Notes: generated by a model from the letters alone, not told the origin. A stretch of 64,000 bases of DNA from an uncultured Muribaculaceae bacterium (GCA_964370755.1 CAYJKL010000002.1:7712-71711); one strand, 5' to 3'. Positions 1,529-26,068 are shown, counted from the first letter of the stretch. A program made the numbers and translations.

Positions 1529-3352
1529 TTATTTTTCTTCAAATTTAGCTTCTTCTACACCATCATCAGTCTTTACTTCTTCAGACGCAGCATCATCTTC
1601 ACTAGGAGCAGCGTTTTTTGCAGCTTCTTCATAAACTTTAGCAGCTAAATCCATAGCAAGTTTATTAAGTTCCTCAGCTTTAGTTTTAATTAATTCATAA
1701 TCTTCACCTTCTAAAGCTTTTTTAACTTCTTCTATTTTTTCTGTAGCACTTGTTTTTTCTTCTTCACTAATTTTACCTTCTAAATCTTCTAGAGCTTTTT
1801 CAGTAGTAAATACAGCACTATCAGCTTCGTTTCTTACTTCAGCATTTTTCTTTTTAGCTTCATCAGCTTCTTTATTAGCTTCAGCTTCTTTCATCATAGT
1901 TTCAATTTCTTCTTCACTTAAATTAGTTGAAGCTGTAATTGTAATTGATTGTTCTTTATTAGTTCCTAAATCTTTAGCTCTAACATTAACGATACCATTA
2001 GCATCAATATCAAATGTAACTTCGATTTGTGGTACTCCACGTCTAGCTGGTAAGATATTAGACAATTGGAAATTACCAAGTGTTTTATTATCAGCAGCCA
2101 TTGGTCTTTCACCTTGAAGTACATGTATGTCTACTGCTGGTTGATTATCAACTGCTGTTGAGAATACTTGACTTTTACTTGTTGGTATAGTTGTATTTCT
2201 AGGTATTAAAACTGTCATAACGTTACCAAGTGTTTCAAGTCCAAGTGATAAAGGAGTAACATCTAAAAGTACGATATCATCAACTTCACCAGTTAATACT
2301 CCACCTTGAATAGCAGCACCCATAGCAACTACTTCATCAGGGTTAACTCCTTTAGAAGGTTCTTGTCCAAGTTCTTTTTTAACAAGTTCTTGAACGTAAG
2401 GTATTCTCGTAGATCCACCTACTAAGATAACTTTATCAATATCTTTTTTGTCCATTTTAGCATCTTTAAGTGCTTGTTTAACAGGTTCTAAAGTTTTATC
2501 AAATAAATCTTTACATAAACTTTCAAACTTAGCTTTAGTTAAATTGATATCCATATGAACTGGAGCTCCATCAACTTGAGTTAAGAATGGTAAACTAATT
2601 TGTGTTGAAGTTGTACTAGATAACTCTTTTTTAGCTTTTTCAGCAGCATCTTTAATTCTTTGCATTGCCATAGCGTCTTTACTAAGGTCTGTTCCATGTT
2701 CTTTTTTGAATTCTTCTACTAAGTAATCACTTACTTTATTATCAAAGTCATCTCCACCAAGTTTGTTATTACCACTTGTTGATTTAACTTCTACAATTCC
2801 GTCTCCTAAATCTAGAATAGATACGTCAAACGTTCCTCCTCCTAAATCGTATACAAGAACTGTTTGATTTTCATTTTGCTTATCAAGTCCATATGCAAGC
2901 GCTGCTGCAGTTGGCTCATTTATAATTCTTTCAACTTCAAGACCAGCAATTTTACCAGCATCTTTTGTAGCTTGACGTTCAGCATCGTTAAAGTATGCTG
3001 GAACTGTAATTACAGCTTTAGTTACTTTTTCTCCTAAATAAGCCTCTGCATCTGCTTTAAGTTTTGAAAGTATTTTTGCACTAATTTCTTGTGGTGTATA
3101 TTTTTTACCATTAATTTCAACTTTGTAATCAGTACCCATATGTCTTTTAATTGAAGACACTGTTCCTTTAACATTTGTTACAGCTTGACGTTTAGCAGTT
3201 TCCCCTATTAAAACATCATCACCTTTAAATCCTACTACTGATGGAGTTGTTCTATTTCCTTCAGCGTTTGCGATAACTACTGTATCGCTACCTTCACGTA
3301 CACTAACACAAGAGTTAGTTGTACCTAAGTCTATTCCTATAATTTTACTCAT
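1529..3352 (-). CDS. dnaK: Molecular chaperone DnaK (Hsp70)
   Basis: 607 aa starting [18 protein letters not shown], the canonical Hsp70 N-terminus, followed by [10 protein letters not shown] and an EEVD-like acidic tail. Confidence 0.97.
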
Positions 3353-3854
3353 ATTTTATATTCCTCTTTCTTTCATTTTCATTTATTTTTGGCAACTTTT
3401 TTGCCCATGTAAGTAAGTTTTCTCTTGCCTTAATAATACTTAACCTAGTTTCTTCATCACTTGTGTTGTTATAATCAAAAGTTTTGCTTATTTTAGTATA
3501 TTTTTTATCACAACCTATTAATTCAACTTGTTTAAGTTCAAATCCTTCTGGTAAGTCACCAAAACTATAATCTTCTTCAAACATAATATATATTTCAGTC
3601 ATAAACTGCATTACTAGTACTATTTTAAACTCAGAATCACTACTAACTAATATAATGTTTGCTTCATTTTTATATCTTTCATATTCTTCTAAAGTTAATT
3701 TAATTGTATATGCCTTATTAAATCTATCATGACCTGCACAACTAAATTTAGTTTGATAACCACTTTTCCAAAGAACATCTAAAATTGGATAAATATTATC
3801 ATCTACCTCAATAGTATCATATATAGGTTCAAGATTATTTTTACTTACTATCAT
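3345..3854 (-). CDS. Hypothetical 169-aa protein inserted between grpE and dnaK; its stop overlaps the dnaK start by 8 nt and it begins 2 nt after the grpE stop
   Basis: Intact ORF on the same strand and frame-packed within the hrcA-grpE-dnaK operon. I recognise no family (contains FSCAGHDRF and a KR-rich C-terminus). Confidence 0.55.
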
Positions 3855-5455: not shown

Positions 5456-5494
5456 TATATAACTGCTAATTTCACAAAACATTCACAAAAAAAA

Positions 5495-6385
5495 CTAACT
5501 CACATTAGTTTTCCTTATTTTTTCATAAAATGTTCTATTTAAAAATTCTTCGCTATTACATAAACTAGTTTCTTTAAAGTATATTTTAAATGCTTCTTCG
5601 TAACTTAAGTGCGGATTCCTATTAGTGAATTCTATGAAGTCGGTAAAATAAGAATATCCTGCTGCTCTTGAATTAAAATTTAGTAGTGACCATTCTGGAT
5701 TTATATCATAGTACTCTGATTTTATAAACTCTTTTACATAATCTGCTAAATCATAACTTTGCATTCTATGCTCAATGTCAATACGTTTTGATGTGCAAAT
5801 ATGCATTACCATATAATCTATCGCCATTGGTAAACCGTTACTTACACCAAACGATCCTGGGTTCACAAAGTATTTTCCATTTATTTTATCACTAAAAGCA
5901 CTGTGTGTGTGCCCTGTAATAAATACATCATTTGATAAACTTGTACTTATACTTTGTCTTAAAATATAGTCCTCTGGCCAAATACTTTGTTTACTACCGA
6001 GAGGATTATGATGATCTACTAAAAAAGATATATCATCAATTTTAAAACTTAACTGATCAGGTAATGATTTTATATAATCATAGTTATTACCATTTACTAT
6101 ATTTCTATAGGTGGTGTCTACTGACTTTGTATCTTTTAAATGTTGTAGTTTACCTTCTTCATACAAACTTATATATCTTTCCCTATTTCCAGCTACTACA
6201 TAAGTAGATAAGCCACTTTCCTTTAACCATTTTATTAAATTTATTACTTCATTATCTTGATATCCATCTGTAATCATATCTCCTGCAAAAATAAAATGTT
6301 CAATTCCTTCATTTAGTAATTTTTTTATTATTTTTTCAAGCATGAAATAATTAGAATGTATATCACTTAATACTGCTACTTTCAT
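5495..6385 (-). CDS. Calcineurin-like metallophosphoesterase with a ~100-aa C-terminal extension
   Basis: MKVAVLSDIHSN, GDMITDG, GNRE and GHTHS motifs match the D-x-H / GD / GNH[DE] / GH signature. The C-terminal 100 aa is unassigned. Confidence 0.8.
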   Translation of the reverse strand: MKVAVLSDIHSNYFMLEKIIKKLLNEGIEHFIFAGDMITDGYQDNEVINLIKWLKESGLSTYVVAGNRERYISLYEEGKLQHLKDTKSVDTTYRNIVNGNNYDYIKSLPDQLSFKIDDISFLVDHHNPLGSKQSIWPEDYILRQSISTSLSNDVFITGHTHSAFSDKINGKYFVNPGSFGVSNGLPMAIDYMVMHICTSKRIDIEHRMQSYDLADYVKEFIKSEYYDINPEWSLLNFNSRAAGYSYFTDFIEFTNRNPHLSYEEAFKIYFKETSLCNSEEFLNRTFYEKIRKTNVS

Positions 6386-6412
6386 TTGATACTCCCCGTA
6401 ATATTATACTAT

Positions 6413-9202
6413 TTACAGAACTAATTGTAAATTATTTTTTTCACTTGCAATTAAGTTTTTAAACTCTTCTACTGAATAATAATATTTATCTTTGTATTTA
6501 ACACAATTAGTAAACTTAAAATCTTCTGGCCAAACAAACTCACTTAAGCTACTGAGCATATTTATATCAAGTATTCCATCTATAAACTTTGGCATTCTTT
6601 TATTATTACCATGTTCTAGTGAACTTAAAATTAAGTCTCCCCATACTTCGTTAGGCATTTTGAAATTTTCTATATCTATACATCTTTTCATATATAGCCC
6701 ACCTTTAAATCTAGAAGACACTTCTAAATTTGATGCACTTTTTAAACTACTTAAATAACATATTCCAGTAAAATCATCAGGTATTTTTAAATATTTTGTT
6801 TCTGTTAGACTACTTAGATCTAAATAGTAACATATTCCACTAGGTAATGGAATGTTATCTATATTTTTGATATTTGTTAAAAATAAACTTCCATTTAGTT
6901 TTTCAGGTAACGAGTTATCTTCTAAGTATTCAACACTATTTAAATACAAAGAACCGTTTATATCAATAGGAAGGTTATAATACTTAAGAGTCTTTATTTT
7001 ATTTAATTTTAAATATCCACCTAATTTCTGTGGTAATGTTATATTATTTATAACTTTAACATTTTCAAGATTTATGTATCCTTTGAAACTTTTGTGAAAT
7101 GTAAAATCATTAAGTTCTTCTAAATCAGGAAAACTATAAAAATAATTAGTTCCAATTGGGACTGTTATATTACTTAAACTTTTGATACCTGATATTTTGA
7201 TACCGCCATGCACTTCTTTTGTTAATGTTCCTTTTTCTAAGTTTTGTGGATATTCGATTCTTAATTCTTGTTCTATTATTTCTGGTAAAATTACGCCTTC
7301 AAAATCGTTTGGATAAGTTATACTAAGCGAACCTCTTAGTATTTTAGGAAATACAATATTTTTTAAATCTACTTTATTATTAAATGTAATATTACCTTTA
7401 TAATCTTCGGGAAACACTAGTTTATTATCGTATTTAATTTTAGAAAAATATAAATCCCTTGTTTCAGTTGGTAATGGAAAATCTTTTAAATTATTTTCAT
7501 CTTTAAATATCATTTCGTTTTCTACGTATTTTGGTAACTCAAAAATGCTCATATCTGATATATTTTTAAATTCAAGGGCACTTTCCATAGCGTAATTAAG
7601 TTTTATTTTCTCTTTGCAACTAACATTATCAAAAGTGAAATTTATATCATTATATATAGAAAGGTCTAGTTCACTTTCGAAGTTACAGTTTTTAAACTCA
7701 ACACTATTATAATCTCTTAGTATTTCAATTTCATTTTCTATTTTTGCGCCAATTAATATTAATTTTCCACTGATCTCTTCAGGCAGAAGAAAGTCTTTAA
7801 ATGACTTATTTAAATTTAATGTTAAATCTCCTACTATTACTTTTGGAAACGTTACTGTTTTATAGTCAACATTTTCATCGTATATTAAGTTTCCATGAAA
7901 GTAATATGGTGCAATAAATCCAGCTGATACTTTAATAGGCCATCCGTATGTTTTGAAAAATTTTATTTTTTTACCACTTAAAAGTTCTTCTTCATTAAAA
8001 GTTATTTCATCTTCTGTACATGATAACGCATATGCTAAATCTTTTTTAGAGTCTCTATCCTTAATAATTTCATAAACTCTTTCATCTGGTTTTCCATTTA
8101 TAAACTTTAGTTTTCTTCTGACTTCGTGCAGAAACCGAATCTCTTCTTTATCTAAGTCTTCTTTATTTAAATGTTTTTCATATATTTTATCAATTATACT
8201 TTTATCATGAAAATACATAGAATATTCACTGTAATTTTTAAAATCTCTTAATTTAAAATTTAAAGTATCTAAGAATTCTTCTGCTACTTCTTGGTTTCCT
8301 GTTGTACCTCTAACTTCAACAATGCAGTTATTTACTACTCTTATTGAAATTTTTGGAAGACTAAAATATTTTTTTACATCTTTAGCATAATATACATAGA
8401 ACTGACCTTCTTTTAAGATGTTTGCTGCCATATTTTTATTAAGAACACACCAGTTAGTTCCTTTACCTTCTAAATCTTGCATTAAAAAATCTACATCATC
8501 TGCACCTTCATATAACATCCATTTTCCATTCGGTTTATAGACGTTTCTTTCATATAAATCAAAACTTCTATGATACATTATGTTTTTATAACAAAATTCA
8601 TATAACTTTCTAAAACTACCATTTTGAAGAAGTAATAAAGCTTCTGTATCATTTCCGGTAAATTTTCCTTCCGCATATTCTTGCATTAAATTAATTACGG
8701 CTTTGATTACGTCCCTATCAAACTCAACAAAAGGATTCGTGGTTTTCGTTGTTCTTCTTGTAAATTTATTATTTTTTCCATCATATGAGCCAATTGATGT
8801 TATACCTACAAATGCCCAGTACAATAGCCAATCTGGATATTTTTGCATTTCTGTACTTAAGAAAAAATCTATAAACTTTCTTAATGATTCTTCTTGATCC
8901 ATTATTACGTTAATTCTGTCTTGTAATCTTTCAAAATAACAATATTCGTCTGAGTCTCCTCTAGCAAGAAGTAGTTTTTCTCTTTTTTTAAAGTATTCTT
9001 CAGGAATATCTCTCATTACATATCTATCAATTAGTAAGTTTTTGATTTTTTCTTTTCTATCAGTTTCAATAGTTTTACTAACAACTCTTTGTAATTTTTC
9101 TAAATATTTCCTTATTTTTTCTGGTGGAGTTAATGATAAATTCCCATTATAAAGCAAGTATAAATCTTTATAAATAATATTTAAAAATTCGTATCCGTTC
9201 AT
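6413..9202 (-). CDS. Large (929 aa) cytoplasmic protein: unknown N-terminal ~430-aa domain plus ~500 aa of ~21-23-aa LRR-like repeats (xLPxxIxGxLxLxx...)
   Basis: No signal peptide. Repeats such as ITLPQKLGGYLKLNKIKTLKYYNLPIDINGSLYLNSVEYLEDNSLPEKLNGSLFLTNIKNI are visible by eye. It has its own promoter-like TTTACT-17-TAATAT after the upstream terminator and is co-directional with the phosphoesterase. Confidence 0.7.
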   Translation of the reverse strand: MNGYEFLNIIYKDLYLLYNGNLSLTPPEKIRKYLEKLQRVVSKTIETDRKEKIKNLLIDRYVMRDIPEEYFKKREKLLLARGDSDEYCYFERLQDRINVIMDQEESLRKFIDFFLSTEMQKYPDWLLYWAFVGITSIGSYDGKNNKFTRRTTKTTNPFVEFDRDVIKAVINLMQEYAEGKFTGNDTEALLLLQNGSFRKLYEFCYKNIMYHRSFDLYERNVYKPNGKWMLYEGADDVDFLMQDLEGKGTNWCVLNKNMAANILKEGQFYVYYAKDVKKYFSLPKISIRVVNNCIVEVRGTTGNQEVAEEFLDTLNFKLRDFKNYSEYSMYFHDKSIIDKIYEKHLNKEDLDKEEIRFLHEVRRKLKFINGKPDERVYEIIKDRDSKKDLAYALSCTEDEITFNEEELLSGKKIKFFKTYGWPIKVSAGFIAPYYFHGNLIYDENVDYKTVTFPKVIVGDLTLNLNKSFKDFLLPEEISGKLILIGAKIENEIEILRDYNSVEFKNCNFESELDLSIYNDINFTFDNVSCKEKIKLNYAMESALEFKNISDMSIFELPKYVENEMIFKDENNLKDFPLPTETRDLYFSKIKYDNKLVFPEDYKGNITFNNKVDLKNIVFPKILRGSLSITYPNDFEGVILPEIIEQELRIEYPQNLEKGTLTKEVHGGIKISGIKSLSNITVPIGTNYFYSFPDLEELNDFTFHKSFKGYINLENVKVINNITLPQKLGGYLKLNKIKTLKYYNLPIDINGSLYLNSVEYLEDNSLPEKLNGSLFLTNIKNIDNIPLPSGICYYLDLSSLTETKYLKIPDDFTGICYLSSLKSASNLEVSSRFKGGLYMKRCIDIENFKMPNEVWGDLILSSLEHGNNKRMPKFIDGILDINMLSSLSEFVWPEDFKFTNCVKYKDKYYYSVEEFKNLIASEKNNLQLVL

Positions 9203-9251
9203 AAACCCCTCCGTAATGTATTACTATATTAATAAATTATTGCTTATAAGT

Positions 9252-9275
9252 AAAGAAAAAACGCTTAATTGCGTT
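9252..9275 (-). terminator. Rho-independent terminator after the 218-aa gene (AACGC-AATTAA-GCGTT + T-run)
   Basis: The minus strand reads AACGCAATTAAGCGTTTTTTCTTT; the stop codon is embedded in the stem. Confidence 0.6.
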
Positions 9276-9930
9276 ATTCTTCTTTTGGTATTTCATCTAA
9301 TGTAACTTCTTTTACTTCTATATTATATACATCACTGCTTTTTGTATATAAATTTACTTCAATATAATAATTTGTATATGTTGATGCGTAGTAGAATTTT
9401 TCAACTGACCCACTAGTTTTCATTGCCATATAAACATAACTATGTTTTGGGTCATTTTTAGTTTCTTCATAACTTGGATTAAAATATTCTTCTAAAATGT
9501 CTACTTTATAACCATCACAAACTAGTGTATCAATTGCGTCTCCTGAATCTTCGTGAGCTATCTCATTATCATTTCCTTCATCTTCTTCAAATGCAAAACT
9601 CAATTCATTATAGTATATGTAGCACTCTCCATCTTTTTTATAGATATTACTACTATTAGGTTCTGTTGTTTCATATATTTTATTTTTTACAATAAATTCA
9701 CTTATATTTATTTCCTCGTTTTCATGAGTTAATGTACTTAGATAAGTATTTAACGCTTCTTTTTCGGTATCGTTATATAACTCTTCATCAAAACTGCTAC
9801 TTGTAAAAAAACTTACAACTGTATCAGCTATTTCTTTATTAGTTACTTCATCTTTTCTAAAGGCATTAGCAACGAATACTATTATTATTAATGACAGAAA
9901 AATCCCTATTATAATAATATATTTTTTCAT
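9274..9930 (-). CDS. Membrane-anchored (N-terminal TM/signal anchor) acidic protein, hypothetical
   Basis: MKKYIIIIGIFLSLIIIVFVANAF hydrophobic N-terminus. ATGA overlap with the upstream M23 peptidase gene indicates translational coupling. Confidence 0.6.
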   Translation of the reverse strand: MKKYIIIIGIFLSLIIIVFVANAFRKDEVTNKEIADTVVSFFTSSSFDEELYNDTEKEALNTYLSTLTHENEEINISEFIVKNKIYETTEPNSSNIYKKDGECYIYYNELSFAFEEDEGNDNEIAHEDSGDAIDTLVCDGYKVDILEEYFNPSYEETKNDPKHSYVYMAMKTSGSVEKFYYASTYTNYYIEVNLYTKSSDVYNIEVKEVTLDEIPKEE

Positions 9931-18366: not shown

Positions 18367-20967
18367 TTATGGAATGTTACTTACTATTGATTCGTACATT
18401 GTGATTGCAAACCTTGATGAATGGTGACCATCAGCTTGTCCCGTAAATAGTGTATATGAGAAAACTCCATTTGCATCTGTATTTGAGAAGAATAAGCTTC
18501 CACCTCTATATATCCAGTGGTATCCATAGTAGGATGCTGAAAATCTTGGATCTCCTAAATATCTATCTTCATAATAATAAATCGTTTCAGTAAGTGCATC
18601 ACCTTTAATTGGTGAAACATCTCCTAATGTATATTTTCCACTAGGGTATACATTTATATATCTTCCTTCTGGCATTGTTGTAAACCCTGATTGATCTGGA
18701 ATAAATTGACCACTTGAATCTAATAATATTCCCATTACCCTATCAAATGTTCCACCTACCATATCATATACTCCGTAAATATTACCTGTTGTTGATGCTC
18801 CCATTCCGTAATATGTATCGTATTTATTAGTGTAACATGTTGCTGTTGTACTTCCTTGATGTGGTGTTGATCCACCAATACCTGTTATATATGTACTACA
18901 GTTGTTAATATAAATTTCTTTATTTGCACCTGTATAATCAGTATTACCATATTTACCATATTTAGATTGTGATAAATACGCTATTGCTCCCCACTCAGTA
19001 TTTTTAATAAGGTGGGCATCTACGTATCCAACATAACCATAGTTATTATATCCATTAACTCCATTCATTAAATCTTGAACATAATTAAATGTTGCTGAAA
19101 TACTCATATTTATCATTGGTCTTACATTTGGTTTAGAATACAGTATATCCCCTACTTTAGATGCTTCGAATTTTGCAACCCAGAAACCTTTTGTTTCAGT
19201 ATTTTCAGAGTTTCCTCTTGTTGCTGGATCGTCACATGAATTACCCCAACAAAATGCTGATGATGTATAATAATTTTCTGCATAGTTTCCAGTATATGTT
19301 CCTGAGCCATTATCTATTTGATCTGGACCAATAAATTTAATATCCATAGCTCCAGGAGTCACTGTACTTACTGAGCTACCACCATATCCTTGTACTCCAT
19401 ATTGATCTTTAATCGTATATGAATACCTTGGAATCCAAACTAGCATAGATGTCATATGATTCATCTCTACTGGTGTCCCTGGTTCTGCATCTACATAAAA
19501 ATCTTTCATAGAATTTATAACTGATGCTGCATTTGCCCATTTTATTTCTGAGTAATCATACCACTCACCATTAACTACATCTGCTTTTTCCCATTTATCT
19601 ATGTAGTCATTGTAAGATATTGGAATTAAACCATCAATAATTTCTGGAGTTGAACCATTAAGAGTTTCATCTTTGTATAATTCGCCTTCTTGATATATAT
19701 ATTCAAGATTAAATATAAGTTCATTACTCGTTATAGTACTATCACCATTATATTCTATATAAAATGTTGACACTGTACCAGGTTCAAATTCGTGATATAA
19801 ACTCATTCCTGTTGTAAGAATTTTTATACCTAGCGTATTTGCTAGTTCTTCCATATTTTTCAAATAATAATAATTTGCTGTTGTATTTTCAATTGTTACT
19901 TCATATCTAAATGTTGAAACTCCAGCTGGTAAATTTAAGTGTACATTAGTTGATGTATCTGTAAATGATGCAGGTGATACTTCGGTTACACCACTTGAAT
20001 TTCCCACTAAGTTTATTGCAGTTACTTTAATTCCTTCTGCTTCTGGTTTTTCTACTAAGATAAAGTCATCAATAGTAATTACGTCACTAGGGTTAGTTTT
20101 ATAGAAAATATATGTTATTGTTTCGTTTTTTTCTACTTTGAACTCAATTTCATTTATATAACCATTACTTCCAACACTTTCATTATAGTAATCACCTTTA
20201 GCAATATGAAGTTTATCTGAGTTCCATCTTAAGAAAAAACTTTTTGCTCTATAAGAATAGTTACTAACTACTATTTTTTCATAATCTGCGTATGATTCAT
20301 GAGTTATTACTACATCTTCTTCTGATAATTCGCCTTTTTTCAGATGAAATTCTCCAGTTAAAGTTTTTTCGTATGGAGATGATGACTTAGCAGTTATACT
20401 TACATCTACATTATCAGGTATTACACCATCTGCTGCCTCAATTAGAAAGAAATGATTTAAACTAGTGTTTCCATTAACCCATGTATAACCTCTATTATTA
20501 CAAGTGTCTTCATCAAGTAAACTTGTGTCTACTCCATCAGTTGTATCATTTCTACACACAAGAATTTTTTCAAGACTTCCAGAATATTTATTACTTCCAC
20601 TTGCATTTACATTACAAGATAAATTACCTGTTGAGTCGCTTGTTACAGTACACTCAATGTTGTAATTTATTGCTTCTTCTGAAACTGATAGTTCATCTTT
20701 GAAGTTTGATAACTCAAAGTATACTGCTCCACCATCCCAGTTATTATCTACATTTACTCCGTCATCAAGATGAGCACTTGTAAAATAGAAGTTTTGGGAT
20801 TCTAGATACTGCTCCCAAACTATATTTCCTACGTATTTAGCAAAAGAAAAGACAGATACGCCAATAAATATTATTGCTATTATCATTAAGAATAATACGT
20901 TCGCTTTTCTTAAATTTAAATTTTTAAAGATTTTATTGTTTTTGAATTTTAATTTAAACTTCTTCAT
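18367..20967 (-). CDS. 866-aa secreted/surface protein: SipW-cognate-like N-terminal signal (…VSVFSFAKYVGN) and C-terminal FGE-sulfatase (SUMF1)-like domain
   Basis: Basic N-terminus, hydrophobic core, then an S-F-A-x-Y motif as in TasA/camelysin signals. The C-terminal region has FWVAKFE(ASK), NTEWGAIAY, GVYDMVGGTFDRV and YRGGSLFF, resembling the FGE-domain motifs FxMGKYEVT / PTEAEWEYA / GLYDMSGNVWEW / LRGGSW. Confidence 0.7.
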   Translation of the reverse strand: MKKFKLKFKNNKIFKNLNLRKANVLFLMIIAIIFIGVSVFSFAKYVGNIVWEQYLESQNFYFTSAHLDDGVNVDNNWDGGAVYFELSNFKDELSVSEEAINYNIECTVTSDSTGNLSCNVNASGSNKYSGSLEKILVCRNDTTDGVDTSLLDEDTCNNRGYTWVNGNTSLNHFFLIEAADGVIPDNVDVSITAKSSSPYEKTLTGEFHLKKGELSEEDVVITHESYADYEKIVVSNYSYRAKSFFLRWNSDKLHIAKGDYYNESVGSNGYINEIEFKVEKNETITYIFYKTNPSDVITIDDFILVEKPEAEGIKVTAINLVGNSSGVTEVSPASFTDTSTNVHLNLPAGVSTFRYEVTIENTTANYYYLKNMEELANTLGIKILTTGMSLYHEFEPGTVSTFYIEYNGDSTITSNELIFNLEYIYQEGELYKDETLNGSTPEIIDGLIPISYNDYIDKWEKADVVNGEWYDYSEIKWANAASVINSMKDFYVDAEPGTPVEMNHMTSMLVWIPRYSYTIKDQYGVQGYGGSSVSTVTPGAMDIKFIGPDQIDNGSGTYTGNYAENYYTSSAFCWGNSCDDPATRGNSENTETKGFWVAKFEASKVGDILYSKPNVRPMINMSISATFNYVQDLMNGVNGYNNYGYVGYVDAHLIKNTEWGAIAYLSQSKYGKYGNTDYTGANKEIYINNCSTYITGIGGSTPHQGSTTATCYTNKYDTYYGMGASTTGNIYGVYDMVGGTFDRVMGILLDSSGQFIPDQSGFTTMPEGRYINVYPSGKYTLGDVSPIKGDALTETIYYYEDRYLGDPRFSASYYGYHWIYRGGSLFFSNTDANGVFSYTLFTGQADGHHSSRFAITMYESIVSNIP

Positions 20968-20978
20968 ATCTGTCCTCT

Positions 20979-23900
20979 CTACTTAACTACGAAATTTTTC
21001 TCTATTGATGATATTAATGTATCTCCATCATAACTATCAATAATGAATTTATAACCTTGCTTTTCTAAACTAGTTAAATCTAGTTCAAAATTAAAGTTAT
21101 TTGAATCTACTAAGTATTTATTTGCTTCACTTGTAGTGTCTAAACTTCCTACTATGTAATCATTTAAATTAATAAGTGAATATGTTTGACTAGCTGCATT
21201 AAATTCATCTTTTTTATAAAGTGATATTCTAACATTTGATGTCGTTAGACCAGTTACTGCTGATGAAATATTTATTATTTCTGTTTCATTTTCACTATTT
21301 AAAATTGGATCATTATTTATAATTGCTCTAAATGAGTAATTACTACTTTCTGCACTTTTAGTTACTGTAAGTGGAATACTATCTTCTGCTAAGTAATTCC
21401 CCATATGCTCTGTATATGAAATATAACTTGTCATTACTAAATTATATCTTCCTTCTTCTAAAAACGAGTCTGTTTTATATGCATGTAGCTCAATATTTTT
21501 ATTTATCTCTTGTATACCTGTATTTAGGTTTACTATAAATTCTCCATTTTCATTTGGATAATATGATTCTCCATCTATTTTTAATATTAAATTATTAAGC
21601 TTAGCTCTAGGAACTGTTTCGTCATAATCATCGTATAACTTAAATTTTAAATATATGTCCTGTTCTTCAATAAATGTATCAAATATATTATAACTTCCAT
21701 TTGCTTTGTAAGTTACTCCTGTATTTACATTTATATTAGTTATTGAATCAGAATTATATTTTAAATATACACTACTAGTTGCGCTTCCTATAAACATACT
21801 TGCATCAGTATTATGATATACATTAAATGGTTTAACACTTGATGCTGCGGTTTCCCTAATTGCAGTATCTGATGCATCAATTGCTTCTAGCCATACTCTA
21901 ATGTCTGTTAAATGTGATGTCATTAGTGCTGCATCAAAATTTATTGTTATTGTAAAGTTTTCTACAATATTAGTACCATTATCATAGTCTCTTTCAGCGT
22001 AATATTCACCTTTTGTACCTAGTTTATTAAACTGTGTAAACATTATACTCTCGCCATCACTTGATTTAATTTTATAATCATACTTACTTCCTGTTATGTT
22101 ATCAGTAATAATTATTACAGTTCCTCCTGGAAGTTGTTTATTAAAATTAATTGTGTGTCTTATAGCTGGAAGGGATTCAGTTGGTATATTATATAAATAA
22201 TTTAATCTAACTGATGAATTACTTGTTACATTTAGTATATCACCAACAGTATAAGCTCCGTTTAAACCAGCGTCAATTGAATTTAAAAAGTATCCTTCAA
22301 ATGTGATCATATCACTATTTAAAAATGATATGTTTCCACTTCTATCCATTGCTCTTGCATATAATATATTATTTCCTACCGGACTTATAGAAAAGTCTCC
22401 AGTATAATTTATCCAGCTTGCTTCATTTAAATTACTTAATTCATCTTTACTCATTGTATCATTACTTAAATAGTAAGATATTTCATCAATGCCTGAATTT
22501 TCATCAGTTGCTGTAATTTTAAAATCAGCGTTATCTTCCATATATATTTCAGTTACATCTTTTCTGTAACTATCCCATACATTACCACTAAATTCTAAAC
22601 TAGCTGTAGGAGCATTTTTGTCAATAACGATTCTATCAGTACTCATATATTTAATATCACCACTATACGTAGTAAGTTTTACATATACAGTATACGCACC
22701 TTCATCACTTAATTTAAGTGATGCCTCATAAGGCAACCATGAAGCTGCCTCTAACATTGTTTCATCATAATTAATATCTTCATAACTTATAAAGTACTCA
22801 ACATTTTCAAGTGTATAAACATAAGCTGAAGAAGTTACCGCAACTGTTATTTCATCATTATAATATACAAAATCATTATTAGATGCAAGTTTATTCCAAG
22901 ACTTACTACCAATTCTTATATCAACTAAATTTACTTCATTTACAAAATATAGTTCTGGAAGTAAGTTTTCATTATATACCCAAACATCTTCAGTTTTATC
23001 TACTACTTTATTAAAGTCTCCAAACATTAAACTATCAAAATTTTCTCTCGTGAATGTTGTATCTAATAATAATATATTTTCATTTTCCTCAGTACTGCTA
23101 TTATATACGTTTTCTAGTGTTGTGTCTTCATAATTGTTTAAAACTATAACTCCGTCACTTTTATTAAATGAATTACTTACCGTTACTACACTATCTTCGT
23201 TAACTGTACCTATAAATGAACTTTCATTTACAAGTGTTCCACTGTTATATGTATTATCTATAGTTACTGTTCCTTTTGAAACACTTCCTACTATTGCATT
23301 TGAGTAAACATCTCCACTAACACTACCTGTGTTATATGAATTTTTTATACTTACATCACCAGTAACATTACCAATAAATCCACTTGATGATATAATATTA
23401 TCTACTTTTACATCAGTAACTACATTTCTTATATCAGTGTTTTTTGCAGTATTTAAAAGTCCACTTGATGATGATAATTTATATACTGTTTCATATTCTA
23501 AATTAATTAAAGATATATTTCTTTCTTTTGTATCTGCTCCAATATAAAGGGTCGTTTCATTAATTTGTGTATTACCTAAATCTACACTAAAAGCTCCAAG
23601 AGGAACACTTATATCATTTATTTTTATTTCATAATTTAATTCTTCTTTATCACTAACTACATAATCACCACTTATACTTGATGAGATTATATCTTCATTT
23701 AAATAACTATTGTCAAATATTTTAATTGTTCTTTCTTCTAAACCAGTTGTTAAATTTATATTTTCATGTTTCTTAACATCAGTTTTATTTTCAACGGCAC
23801 CACTAGATACTGCATATCCATTAATAAATACATCTTCAATTTTACTATCACTACTATTTATTGCAAGTCCTGCTACATTGTCTTTACCAAGTACAAGCAT

Positions 23901-24479
23901 ATTTTCAATAAATATATTTTCAATTGTACCACTTAGATTATCAAAAAGTGCTAAAGATTCGTTACTTGCACTTGTTATATACATTCCGTAAATTGAGTAA
24001 AAAGATCCATCTAGGTTACCTTTGAAATTTTCAATGCTTCCTTCAAAAGAATTTACTACTACCTCGCTTGATGCACTATACTCTTTATCTGTATATACCT
24101 CATTTGTATATTTTTTTATATAGTATTCTTCTTCTAAAGACATGTATTTAACACCTGAATTTTCATAAACGAAATATCCGTTGTTAAGTATAATATCATT
24201 ACCTAGTTTAAAATATACTCCACTGTAATCAGTTGATTTTAGTTCTTCTGCAAAATACGCAAATTCTGCTCCACTAGTAATCATATATGGATCATCTTTT
24301 GACCCTGTTCCTGAATTATAACTTTCTGCAATTGAACCATCCCATACGGGTAGATTTCCTGGAAGTGCCCACTGATTGGCAAACCTTGATAACGTCGGTG
24401 TTGCAAATGATACAATCGCAACAAGTACTAAAACACTAATTAAAACTTTTTTTCTATTTAATTTCTTTAATTTTCTCAC
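20979..24479 (-). CDS. 1166-aa secreted/surface protein: SipW-cognate-like signal (…TLSRFANQW), G(S/T)xxDPYxI cap and beta-helix/GLUG-like repetitive core
   Basis: Apparent GTG start with RBS AGGAG. Repeats such as GNVTGDVSIKNSYNTGSVSGDVYSNAIVGSVSKGTVTIDNTYNSGTLVN. Promoter-like TTGTCA-18-TATTAA upstream, preceded by a T9 tract. Confidence 0.7.
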   Translation of the reverse strand: MRKLKKLNRKKVLISVLVLVAIVSFATPTLSRFANQWALPGNLPVWDGSIAESYNSGTGSKDDPYMITSGAEFAYFAEELKSTDYSGVYFKLGNDIILNNGYFVYENSGVKYMSLEEEYYIKKYTNEVYTDKEYSASSEVVVNSFEGSIENFKGNLDGSFYSIYGMYITSASNESLALFDNLSGTIENIFIENMLVLGKDNVAGLAINSSDSKIEDVFINGYAVSSGAVENKTDVKKHENINLTTGLEERTIKIFDNSYLNEDIISSSISGDYVVSDKEELNYEIKINDISVPLGAFSVDLGNTQINETTLYIGADTKERNISLINLEYETVYKLSSSSGLLNTAKNTDIRNVVTDVKVDNIISSSGFIGNVTGDVSIKNSYNTGSVSGDVYSNAIVGSVSKGTVTIDNTYNSGTLVNESSFIGTVNEDSVVTVSNSFNKSDGVIVLNNYEDTTLENVYNSSTEENENILLLDTTFTRENFDSLMFGDFNKVVDKTEDVWVYNENLLPELYFVNEVNLVDIRIGSKSWNKLASNNDFVYYNDEITVAVTSSAYVYTLENVEYFISYEDINYDETMLEAASWLPYEASLKLSDEGAYTVYVKLTTYSGDIKYMSTDRIVIDKNAPTASLEFSGNVWDSYRKDVTEIYMEDNADFKITATDENSGIDEISYYLSNDTMSKDELSNLNEASWINYTGDFSISPVGNNILYARAMDRSGNISFLNSDMITFEGYFLNSIDAGLNGAYTVGDILNVTSNSSVRLNYLYNIPTESLPAIRHTINFNKQLPGGTVIIITDNITGSKYDYKIKSSDGESIMFTQFNKLGTKGEYYAERDYDNGTNIVENFTITINFDAALMTSHLTDIRVWLEAIDASDTAIRETAASSVKPFNVYHNTDASMFIGSATSSVYLKYNSDSITNINVNTGVTYKANGSYNIFDTFIEEQDIYLKFKLYDDYDETVPRAKLNNLILKIDGESYYPNENGEFIVNLNTGIQEINKNIELHAYKTDSFLEEGRYNLVMTSYISYTEHMGNYLAEDSIPLTVTKSAESSNYSFRAIINNDPILNSENETEIINISSAVTGLTTSNVRISLYKKDEFNAASQTYSLINLNDYIVGSLDTTSEANKYLVDSNNFNFELDLTSLEKQGYKFIIDSYDGDTLISSIEKNFVVK

Positions 24480-24607
24480 AATAGCCTACTCCTATAATTA
24501 ATATAATTGTATCACACTTTTTGACAAAAAAAAACAAATTAATTGAAATTAATTCATCTTTTACAAATATGCTATGATTATTTACATTTATTATGTTAAC
24601 AACTGCG

Positions 24608-24644
24608 GGTGGCGGCCAGACATTCGCCTGGCAAGTTCGCCACC
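24608..24644 (-). other. GC-rich nested hairpin (GGTGGCG-GCCAG-loop-CTGGC-AAGTT-CGCCACC) immediately 3' of the 470-aa gene
   Basis: Two nested perfect stems (7 bp and 5 bp) in a ~65% GC patch within a ~28% GC genome. There is no U-run after it on the minus transcript. Confidence 0.6.
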
Positions 24645-24655
24645 TTGCTCCGGTT

Positions 24656-26068
24656 TTAGCCTACGATGAACGGATCAGCAGAGCTTCCCGTTCCACCTAA
24701 AATTTTTGTAGAAGAGCTCAGATACATGACAGGGAGAACCACATAGCCAAATCCCACTTCGTTGTTAATCGCATAGCCGCTATAGTTCACATACCACGAA
24801 GACGAAGAAGTAGACGCTCTATGCGAAATTGTCCAGCAATTACTTCCTAAAAACATCCAATTGTTAGCTGGAATATTGTATGTTTTATAATCATATAAAT
24901 CTGTTGTCCAAGCGATACTATAAGCTGCGTACCCATAATCACTCGGGTACATTAAACCAATATTTTCTACTGTAGTTGTTGCATATAAATTATTATAACT
25001 TGTATTACTTTTTTCTGCTGTTAAGTGCTCTTTTGCTGTCATTCGATAATCACTTGTACTACCCAAATTCCAAGTAGTTTCCATTATCATACTTTGATAA
25101 CTTGCTGGTATTGTATTATAAAAATCATTATTAAGGTACGTATTTAAACTTGAATTTACCCAATCATTCACATCGCCACTATCCCAAGCCATATTCGCTA
25201 TAAACGTGTTTCTAATAAGTTTCATTTCATAACCATTTCCATTATCAAAGTAACCTATTATTCTGTATATATTATCTGCAGGACATGGTGATACATCACT
25301 TCCAAAACACACGTAGTTATTTGCTACTACTGCGTTTGACCCTGAATATCTATAACTATTATCATTTGCTCCATTTTCGAGATTTGAATCGTGATAAAAT
25401 AAACCATTTGTATCATTGTGAGATGCGATTAAAGTTTCTGCTCCAGTTAATTCTATTTTTTCATTTTGAAGTATAAACTCTGCATCAAGTGTCTTTCCTT
25501 CATTAAGAGCTTGATTAGTTGTTAGGTTTACGAATGTGATTTCTGCTTCCCACTCTTGCGTAGTTGTTGTGTTTCCGCTTATTTCGTAGTCTTCAGATAC
25601 TTTTATTAGACCTTTATATTCAGTTATGTCATATATTCCAGGAGATACTGCGGTAAGACCTGATAGAGTTACTGCTGCACCATCTGGGTCTGTAATACTT
25701 AAAAGTATTTCCGGTGTTTTAGCAGCTGTTGTATAAACAAATGTGTTTGCCGCTATATCAAAATATATATTGTAGTTGTCTGTTGCGTTTGCTACATTAG
25801 TTCCAAGTGTAAGCGTTGCGCTTGATGTAGTAGACCCTGATACATTACCTCCACCTTCAGCAAGTGTTGTTTCATTTAGTTCTAAGTTAATTGCTGTTCC
25901 TTCAGTAAATGTAAGTTTAGTAGTCTGCCCACTTGCTACATTTACATCAGTGTTTGCTGCAGGTCCTGCTCCTCCTGCGAAAAAAGCGTATGATAAACTA
26001 GTTGTCAAAACTAATAGACTTGCTACTAGAACAATCATTCTTGTTTTTGATTTTCTTTTTAGTTCCAT
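24656..26068 (-). CDS. 470-aa secreted protein with a TasA/camelysin-like (SipW-cognate) N-terminus (…SLSYAFFAGGAG) and an aromatic/Asn-rich C-terminal domain
   Basis: Signal ends in the AFF motif typical of camelysin/TasA. It is followed by a Gly/Ala/Thr-rich beta-type region. The 3' ~200 nt use GC-rich codons (GGC, CCG, ACG) atypical for the window. Confidence 0.65.
   Translation of the reverse strand: MELKRKSKTRMIVLVASLLVLTTSLSYAFFAGGAGPAANTDVNVASGQTTKLTFTEGTAINLELNETTLAEGGGNVSGSTTSSATLTLGTNVANATDNYNIYFDIAANTFVYTTAAKTPEILLSITDPDGAAVTLSGLTAVSPGIYDITEYKGLIKVSEDYEISGNTTTTQEWEAEITFVNLTTNQALNEGKTLDAEFILQNEKIELTGAETLIASHNDTNGLFYHDSNLENGANDNSYRYSGSNAVVANNYVCFGSDVSPCPADNIYRIIGYFDNGNGYEMKLIRNTFIANMAWDSGDVNDWVNSSLNTYLNNDFYNTIPASYQSMIMETTWNLGSTSDYRMTAKEHLTAEKSNTSYNNLYATTTVENIGLMYPSDYGYAAYSIAWTTDLYDYKTYNIPANNWMFLGSNCWTISHRASTSSSSWYVNYSGYAINNEVGFGYVVLPVMYLSSSTKILGGTGSSADPFIVG

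Follow-up and report, generated by a model that had tools for sequence, protein, structure and literature searches.

The 64,000-nucleotide stretch analysed here, called the window in what follows, comes from an uncultured Muribaculaceae bacterium (GCA_964370755.1, CAYJKL010000002.1:7712-71711). On its minus strand, between positions 5,495 and 9,202, two genes lie side by side, one for a large protein of 929 residues whose C-terminal half is an array of leucine-rich-repeat-like (LRR-like) units, and one for a metallophosphoesterase of 296 residues. An initial annotation had read them as a candidate two-gene defence or signalling module. Both open reading frames (ORFs) are present as it described them, the phosphoesterase with a C-terminal extension included, but our view of what they are is different. 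The reading we prefer, with a confidence slightly above even, is that the locus consists of two functionally independent genes which are adjacent in this genome only, namely a solo, LRR-guided effector-like protein and a bystander phosphodiesterase. The findings beneath this reading, that is, the gene structure, the periodicity of the repeats, the membership of the large protein in a family, the homology of its N-terminal head domain to a phage module and the lack of co-conservation of the pair, are each held with high confidence.

Does the pair travel together? The initial annotation had supposed that it might, and that it might be met in defence islands. Neighbourhoods collected from both sides speak against this. 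When 82 loci of the 929-residue family were searched by tblastn with the phosphoesterase of the window, no relative of the enzyme was found within 8 kb of any of them, and all-against-all clustering of the 1076 flanking ORFs placed even the commonest neighbour family in just 8 of the 82. The 929-residue family is thus a solo-gene family without a conserved partner. From the other side, the head domain of the family occurs in none of 80 metagenomic loci found by alignment to the phosphoesterase, a sample in which many loci are probably from one abundant gut species. In the closest relatives of the 929-residue protein, the gene stands between parA-parB and a split tyrosine recombinase with uvrB, and there is no phosphoesterase. 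Contexts in the rest of the family vary and are made of housekeeping genes, not defence islands; the loci L188, L189 and L190 are housekeeping too, and unlike one another.

The recombinase (Phage_integrase) directly downstream of the closest relatives deserves a remark of its own. It is split into two overlapping ORFs of 62 and 219 residues (L001 12636-13428; L002 4805-5597; L003 3322-4114; L190 10510-11302), and it could be a frameshifted pseudogene, a case of programmed frameshifting or a gene-calling artefact.

Is there still room for a two-gene module, with the repeat protein as sensor of an invader and the metallophosphoesterase as its nuclease or phosphodiesterase effector, or the reverse? 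The arrangement of the genes in this genome does invite the thought. The phosphoesterase gene lies downstream on the same strand after a spacer of 27 nucleotides in which no RNA structure is predicted (z -0.35), while terminator-like hairpins are predicted upstream of the 929-residue gene (-10.8 kcal/mol, z -4.5) and after the phosphoesterase gene (-12.2 kcal/mol, z -4.9). Because the hairpins flank the pair and none lies in the spacer, the two genes probably form a single transcription unit here. Note that the pair had been described as a self-contained unit with its own promoter and a terminator upstream. The upstream hairpin is there, but a promoter of the 929-residue gene was not found (no site of at least 9/12 in 9203-9260); the best promoter-like consensus site (11/12) directly precedes the phosphoesterase gene instead, which is a point against a joint module. 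There is also one further adjacency, where a family member of 986 residues (P0121, in L105/L106) stands 237 nucleotides from a 273-residue phosphoesterase near dnaA/rnpA (L105 11198-12019, L106 3565-4386). This second enzyme is 30% identical to that of the window (E 1e-26), and the alignment reaches into the C-terminal extension. However, the two genes are convergent and therefore not an operon, and one adjacency among about 86 loci is not far from a rough chance expectation of 0.1-0.2; such rarity gives a functional pair no support. Finally, over its residues 1-77 the phosphoesterase matches PDC-S10, a model of a candidate defence system (E 4e-6), which is a generic metallophosphoesterase motif match. 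In PADLOC-DB v2 no convincing defence model or system was matched by the 929-residue protein or 51 members of its family, the stray matches being LeoB in one member (4e-4) and Cas11a in one member (8e-3). Taken with the empty neighbourhoods on both sides and with the closest relatives, which adjoin parB and the recombinase, this makes a two-gene module very improbable, and the co-conservation which the initial annotation had itself proposed to look for is absent.

If the preferred reading of two independent genes is right, what is the large protein? Its N-terminus had been described as unplaced, and sequence libraries indeed do not place it. Pfam, NCBIfam, PADLOC and PHROGs give no match for the 929-residue protein, no known housekeeping family of Pfam or NCBIfam included; a profile search of PDB sequences returned nothing at E<=10; and Pfam is silent over the head domain in all 51 members scanned, as it is on unusually long members. 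What the libraries do return for the 51 members is scattered and mostly of repeat type. The N-terminus is nevertheless the hallmark domain of a large family and homologous to a module of phage polyvalent proteins. Among 1.84 billion cluster representatives (50% identity), a profile of residues 1-413 matched 2211 clusters at E<=1e-3, 1259 of them at E<=1e-30. Nearly all matches have the head domain at the N-terminus and a total length of 500-1000 residues, and in most of the listed members the domain begins within about 10 residues of the N-terminus. A word-indexed search gave only 7 relatives, at about 30% identity. All source annotations of members that we saw read 'hypothetical protein'.

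The conservation of the head domain is concentrated in a few motifs, and those of its core are GxWxxY, GTxWC, G(D/Q)FYVYY, P(R/K)I(A/S)IR, xEVRG and NQ. Q103, R150, F197, Y201, G226, W228, C252, P283, R298 and G299 are invariant; W251-C252, G266-D-F-x-V-Y-Y, D275, P283-R-x-A-I-R, E296-x-R298-G299, Q304, F357 and D373-P-R are also invariant or nearly so. Charged residues among the conserved ones are R150, D275, R284, R288, E296, R298, K317, D373 and R375, and there is one conserved Cys and no conserved His. The AlphaFold2 model of the full-length protein, built on a 51-sequence alignment, has a mean predicted local distance difference test score (pLDDT) of 84.3, and a model of the head only has 85.9. 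The head is predicted to be mostly helical and wrapped around an alpha/beta core with strands at 226-232, 267-274, 280-290 and 293-298 and helices at 234-244 and 256-265. Foldseek comparison of the full-length and head-only models with the PDB gave nothing at E<=1e-3.

Several known folds were considered for this core and set aside. GNAT, which recurred among weak fold matches, is rejected: of its fold b1-a1-a2-b2-b3-b4-a3-b5-a4-b6 only the b1-to-a3 half is present, the loop after b4 reads RG(I/T)(A/T)xxQN and not the CoA-binding motif A RxxGxG/A, and the best match, PaiA, has E 0.63 and a TM-score of 0.32. A BECR/RelE-type RNase or PBECR, a speculative idea suggested by the b1-a1-a2-b2-b3-b4 topology and by the passage on PBECR in PMC5512222, was dropped for want of a Pfam PBECR match and of a conserved His or Ser/Thr pattern. 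A papain-like Cys peptidase is ruled out by the lack of a conserved His.

The closest homology of the head leads to phages. In IMG/VR there are 17 matches, of which one is a stand-alone protein of 679 residues with the full head domain (L088) and 16 are internal to large phage ORFs (L089-L104), about 3000 residues long where they could be read through (e.g. L089 121-9993) and located on contigs of roughly 11-50 kb. The matching segments correspond to residues 248-320/350. Comparison of the family with the phage module by hhalign gave a probability of 99.2% and E 1.8e-19 over 234 columns (family positions 97-358), and the motifs CAGTxWCT, GDFYVYY, PEVAVRM and IGEVRGNxPNQ of the module are nearly identical to those of the family. 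Pfam finds LPD38 near the C-terminus of the two giants scanned, a zincin-like HExxH motif is visible in the giants' sequences, and their remainder has no Pfam annotation, the shared module included, which no Pfam model matches. After the module the giants have a few LP-containing segments and no significant 21-residue periodicity. With LPD38 and the zincin-like HExxH, they count as the large polyvalent proteins of Iyer et al. 2017 (PMC5512222), who propose that such proteins are injected along with the DNA at an early stage of infection. A search of that article for PcfJ, cysteine or LRRs, its supplementary LPD domain lists aside, gave no match. Virions of phage phi24B contain the giant LPD38 protein gp47 in abundance, and it is a proposed ejection protein (bioRxiv 10.64898/2026.04.10.717836); a comparable giant is present in a Bcep22-like podovirus.

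Another possible relative is PcfJ (PF14284), an idea prompted by a similar layout of motifs and tested by sequence model, profile-profile comparison and fold. The Pfam PcfJ model matches neither the 929-residue protein, nor the 51 members, nor 7 excised cores at E<=10, while PcfJ of pCF10, the positive control, matches it at 1.1e-43. By hhalign, the family scored E 0.35 and probability 0.2% against close PcfJ relatives. With a diverse alignment, made of PcfJ domains of Firmicute phages, the result was a sub-threshold E 0.0028 (probability 11%). Both runs pick the register in which hC loop, G-strand, P-strand and x(Q/E)x(R/Q)G-N(R/Q) fall on their counterparts. In a Foldseek search of BFVD, PcfJ-like proteins took ranks 3, 5, 8, 9 and 15, below significance (prob 0.14-0.84, E 0.015-0.8). 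These results are suggestive, and the head core may be remotely PcfJ-like. A literature search on PcfJ, dominated by the C. elegans pCFJ plasmids, found no functional study. We also note that pcfJ in pCF10 (L187 10874-12984; NC_006827.2 35873-37983) has directly after it, in the same orientation, a gene annotated as a Cas9 inhibitor of the AcrIIA9 family, which hints that PcfJ is located in an anti-defence region of that plasmid.

The second half of the protein is periodic. The initial annotation spoke of about 20 LRR-like repeats of 21-23 residues; about 21 units are counted and the model is a solenoid, while the period is strictly 21. The consensus is roughly (L/F)PxxIxGxLxLxxhxxxxxh, and when the repeats are anchored on (L/F/I)P, the spacings are multiples of 21. 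Autocorrelation of residue classes over the C-terminal half gives z 6.1 at lag 21, 5.5 at lag 42 and 5.2 at lag 63, a periodicity as high as the observed one appeared in 0 of 2000 shuffles, and the N-terminal half has no 21-residue signal. In the AlphaFold2 model the repeat half is helix-free, with one short strand per 21 residues, and pLDDT exceeds 90 for residues ~710-890, i.e. the last ten or so repeats. Is this array an LRR? Tandem repeats of 20-30 residues with one strand each in a solenoid, the structural definition of LRRs, are what the model predicts for the C-terminal half, and the top PDB fold matches are the LRRs of YopM (E 0.026, prob 0.69), TLR4 (E 0.017) and IpaH, all weak (E 0.02-6). 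Pfam LRR models do not match the 929-residue protein, and the canonical LxxLxLxxN/CxL signature or Asn ladder is not evident in the 21-residue register. Among the 51 members scanned, single ones match Pfam LRR_5, LRR_14 or LRR_EndoS, and about 38 have a C-terminal period near 21 or 42.

Since relatives carry differing C-terminal repeat types (25- or 28-residue repeats, DUF4116 or pentapeptide repeats in other members), the tail is exchangeable, and the canonical architecture of the family is the head domain plus an exchangeable repeat array. Five relatives (P0002-P0006) have nearly identical heads and lengths of 911, 869, 827, 806 and 700 residues. The steps of 42, 42, 21 and 106 residues correspond to whole 21-residue units, and they reflect either fast variation of repeat number or collapse of near-identical repeats in short-read assembly.

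An LRR-like solenoid also raises the possibility of a surface or secreted adhesin of the internalin or BspA type, by which the cell would attach to its host or prey. Lineages that depend on hosts or prey are over-represented in the family, a few members weakly match LRR_5 (BspA-type) or LRR_EndoS, and genuine surface-protein genes occur elsewhere in the window. The sequence of the 929-residue protein, however, has no signal peptide, as the initial annotation had said, and no transmembrane segment at its N-terminus, and a lipobox, an LPXTG motif and a cell-wall-binding domain were not seen either. In most listed members the head domain stands at the very N-terminus, and there are no adjacent secretion genes. 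An adhesin therefore receives very little credence from us, hardly different from that given to the two-gene module.

How is the family distributed? In species-representative genomes 485 loci were confirmed, and 79 distinct loci were taken with 8-kb flanks. By a tally of record titles, about 48 of these are from uncultured gut Bacilli, 'Tenericutes', Mollicutes or Clostridia-labelled metagenome-assembled genomes (MAGs), 15 are from Patescibacteria (candidate phyla radiation), 5 are from Bdellovibrionales or 'Deltaproteobacteria', and a few are from elsewhere. Tandem paralogs are found (L031 3575-7248; L044 7956-11460; L050 21-2797), and several MAGs have two separate loci, e.g. Lapin-023 bin93, Lapin-003-2 bin84, Lapin-016 bin9 and Lapin-012 bin34. 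Within the window no second paralog was found.

Such a distribution brings in the main rival explanation, a lineage-specific housekeeping scaffold that would organise an envelope, division or chromosome complex in bacteria with reduced genomes and take no part in conflict. The neighbours of the family are always housekeeping genes, often related to the origin or to division (parAB, dnaA, ftsEX-pcsB, M23 peptidase, mltG/ruvX), the GC content of the window copy is native, and it is mainly in lineages with small genomes (gut Bacilli/'Tenericutes', Patescibacteria and Bdellovibrionales) that the family is met. The argument from context is weak, though, because small genomes have housekeeping neighbours nearly everywhere. 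What is more, a scaffold accords poorly with the absence of conserved synteny, with variable copy number and tandem paralogs, with the exchange of C-terminal repeat types and with the homologous module in phage polyvalent proteins. We consider a housekeeping scaffold improbable, although no other competitor comes closer.

Could the window copy have lost its function altogether? Its sequence is divergent, with about 30% identity to every relative, its repeats are more degenerate than theirs, and it has TNWCVLN where the family consensus is TGWCTAG. One explanation is that it is a decaying remnant of a polyvalent protein of a phage or mobile element, domesticated by chance and now functionless. 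Against this, its ORF of 2790 nucleotides is intact in a genome of about 27% GC, where stop codons arise easily; all family-invariant residues are kept, the ribosome-binding site is strong and the fold prediction is confident. The family is also too large and too conserved for junk. Of all the explanations considered here we find this the least probable.

We return to the preferred reading and to how the 929-residue protein might work. It would act on its own, and in conflicts with neighbouring cells or with genetic elements that invade, it would be an effector or sensor guided by its LRR. The LRR solenoid would be a variable specificity module which binds, and possibly gates on, a protein partner, and it would direct the conserved head domain to a conserved cellular target. 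That the protein has a role in conflict is a tentative view which we hold a little short of evenly; of the earlier suggestion, a conflict-related large protein stays plausible from the phage polyvalent homology, the paralog expansion and the variation in repeat number, and the two-gene defence module does not. That the head is an enzyme we find rather unlikely. More doubtful still is a fuller proposal, in which the head, with its PcfJ-like core, invariant Trp-Cys loop and ExRG strand, would be a new and possibly enzymatic effector domain common to phage-injected polyvalent proteins and to a stand-alone, LRR-fused family. This family would have expanded in host- or prey-dependent bacteria (Patescibacteria, Bdellovibrionales, reduced gut Bacilli) as a hitherto unrecognised class of single-polypeptide conflict proteins guided by variable repeats, in which the LRR would choose the target or trigger and the head would work on some conserved component of the cell.

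Several points weigh against the reading of two independent genes with a solo effector-like protein. The family is surrounded by housekeeping genes, an unusual setting for defence or offence cargo, and no match to it was found in GenBank phages or PLSDB plasmids. In the head domain there is neither a conserved His nor a metal-ligand set that would point to a catalytic site, and with no signal peptide and no secretion-system neighbour, a delivery route to another cell is not visible. The repeat-number differences between close relatives could be assembly collapse. As to independence, both genes look like one transcription unit in this genome, and the adjacency in L105 leaves room for a lineage-specific link.

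What of the phosphoesterase? The 296-residue protein matches PF12850 Metallophos_2 (70.9 bits, cutoff 27; 1.5e-19), PF00149 Metallophos (57.7 bits, cutoff 21.5; 2.7e-15) and TIGR00040 (YfcE; 61.5 bits, cutoff 56.25). Its metal motifs D8-x-H10, G35-D36, G66-N67-R-E, H125 and G158-H159-x-H161 are invariant among 22 members of its subfamily, whose motif set is DxH, GD, GN(R/H)E, H and GHxH. By these motifs it is a catalytically intact phosphodiesterase of the YfcE type. The C-terminal extension, to which the initial annotation had drawn attention, proves to be a conserved helical one in the same 22 members, with W232, T242-G243 and W266 conserved. Relatives of 280-300 residues adjoin rplJ-rpoB, mutY-gyrB, dut-glnA and similar genes, and the enzyme looks like a housekeeping-type bystander. 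Coordinates are collected in Table 1.

Table 1. Features of the locus, with positions counted from the first nucleotide of the window
Feature	Position	Strand	Basis or remark
Gene for the 929-residue protein	6413..9202	-	ORF; unnamed family; conserved N-terminal domain and 21-residue repeat solenoid
N-terminal conserved domain (head), residues 1 to ~415	7958..9202	-	Profile search, alignments, model
Core b1-a1-a2-b2-b3-b4, residues 226-305	8288..8527	-	Secondary structure, IMG/VR matches, hhalign, BFVD fold matches
Tandem 21-residue LRR-like repeats, ~21 units, residues 452-892	6527..7849	-	Periodicity and model
C-terminal capping helix, residues 911-928	6419..6472	-	DSSP on AlphaFold2 model
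Gene for the 296-residue YfcE-type metallophosphoesterase	5495..6385	-	ORF and Pfam/TIGRFAM matches
Catalytic domain, residues 1-197	5795-6385	-	Pfam/TIGRFAM matches
Conserved helical C-terminal extension, residues 198-296	5498-5794	-	Subfamily alignment
Ribosome-binding site GGAGGGG	9206..9212	-	Sequence read; 3 nucleotides before the ATG of the 929-residue gene
Terminator-like hairpin and U-tract	9252..9285	-	Closes the upstream operon; overlaps the stop codon of a 218-residue ORF
Promoter-like site TTTACA-17-TATAAT	6403..6431	-	11/12, consensus match only; overlaps the 3' end of the 929-residue gene
Ribosome-binding site GGGGAG of the phosphoesterase gene	6392-6397	-	After the promoter-like site
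Terminator-like A-tract/hairpin/U-tract	5485..5518	-	Overlaps the phosphoesterase stop codon; ends the unit before the hrcA promoter
hrcA promoter TTGACA-17-TATAAT (perfect sigma-70) and CIRCE-type inverted repeat TTAGCACTT-N-GAGTGCTAA	5394-5455	-	

The surroundings of the pair are ordinary. Downstream come hrcA and then grpE and dnaK, with a CIRCE element, which is a textbook HrcA-regulated heat-shock operon; upstream are genes for an M23 peptidase and a TPR protein, fmt, frr and spoIVA. The pair had been described as inserted between housekeeping blocks, and the flanks are indeed housekeeping, but no sign of insertion was seen. The GC content of the pair equals that of the flanks, and no flanking direct repeats, integrase or nearby tRNA were found around it; on these grounds insertion by a mobile element is rejected.

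Two further observations concern other genes of the window. One is an ORF of 169 residues (3345-3854, minus strand) between grpE and dnaK, which overlaps the start of dnaK by 8 nucleotides. It has no Pfam or NCBIfam match and only a weak one to the function-less PHROG phrog_6638 (E 1.4e-4), and an additional gene at this place is unusual for an hrcA-grpE-dnaK operon. The other is a row of three successive large ORFs of 866, 1166 and 470 residues (18367-26068, minus strand), each of which starts with a segment of membrane or signal-like type. Pfam is silent on the first two and finds DUF6273 in the third; together they resemble a surface-protein cluster beside spoIVA and have no relation to the 929-residue protein.

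Why should this family be of concern? The interest lies in the family and not in this locus. It has more than 2000 clusters without a Pfam or NCBIfam model, a solved structure or a name, and its distribution is skewed to the candidate phyla radiation, predatory Bdellovibrionales and small-genome gut Bacilli. If the head is an effector, a stretch of phage polyvalent proteins that now lacks annotation would gain a function, and so, possibly, would the PcfJ-like domain found in conjugative plasmids and in phages of the Herelleviridae. There would be a handle, too, on how host-dependent bacteria with tiny genomes deal with their partners or parasites. A single-gene family whose invariant residues are clear is also easy to test.

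How do the two proteins compare with known systems? The phosphoesterase shares with YfcE-type enzymes the TIGR00040 score and all metal-ligand motifs, and it adds a helical extension of about 100 residues, conserved in a subfamily of 280-300 residues from gut Firmicutes. The 929-residue protein has a head domain homologous to an internal module of the LPD38-bearing giants. It differs from polyvalent proteins, which are encoded by phages or conjugative elements and combine several disparate effector domains, in being chromosomal, in having a single conserved domain plus repeats, and in lacking zincin, LPD38, other effector domains and any virion or mobile-element context. With PcfJ the head core has in common the order of secondary-structure elements and the placement of motifs (hC loop, helix, G-strand, P-strand). 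The PcfJ-like domain, known from PcfJ of pCF10 and from 'PcfJ-like' proteins of Herelleviridae, is marked by an invariant His-Cys dipeptide with E-G upstream (H76-C77 in PcfJ), whereas the family has W251-C252 and no conserved His, and PcfJ is without the repeats and the helical N-terminal part of about 220 residues found in the 929-residue family.

The bacterial LRR effectors YopM and IpaH/SspH are the last comparison. The 929-residue protein lacks a NEL domain, a type III secretion signal or system and the canonical LxxLxLxxN signature, and its LRR comes last, opposite to their domain order. They likewise have repeats of 20-22 residues in a helix-free solenoid with one strand per repeat, and likewise join a conserved domain of another kind to a variable LRR array. 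The LRR of IpaH/SspH both binds the substrate and keeps the catalytic domain autoinhibited. The mechanism proposed above for the LRR comes from this analogy, and by likeness to these effectors and to repeat-bearing immune proteins we regard it as an even call that the LRR may act as a specificity or autoinhibition module. The parts which the protein of the window combines are thus of known kinds, the one an LRR-like solenoid, the other a head with relatives in polyvalent proteins and possibly in PcfJ.

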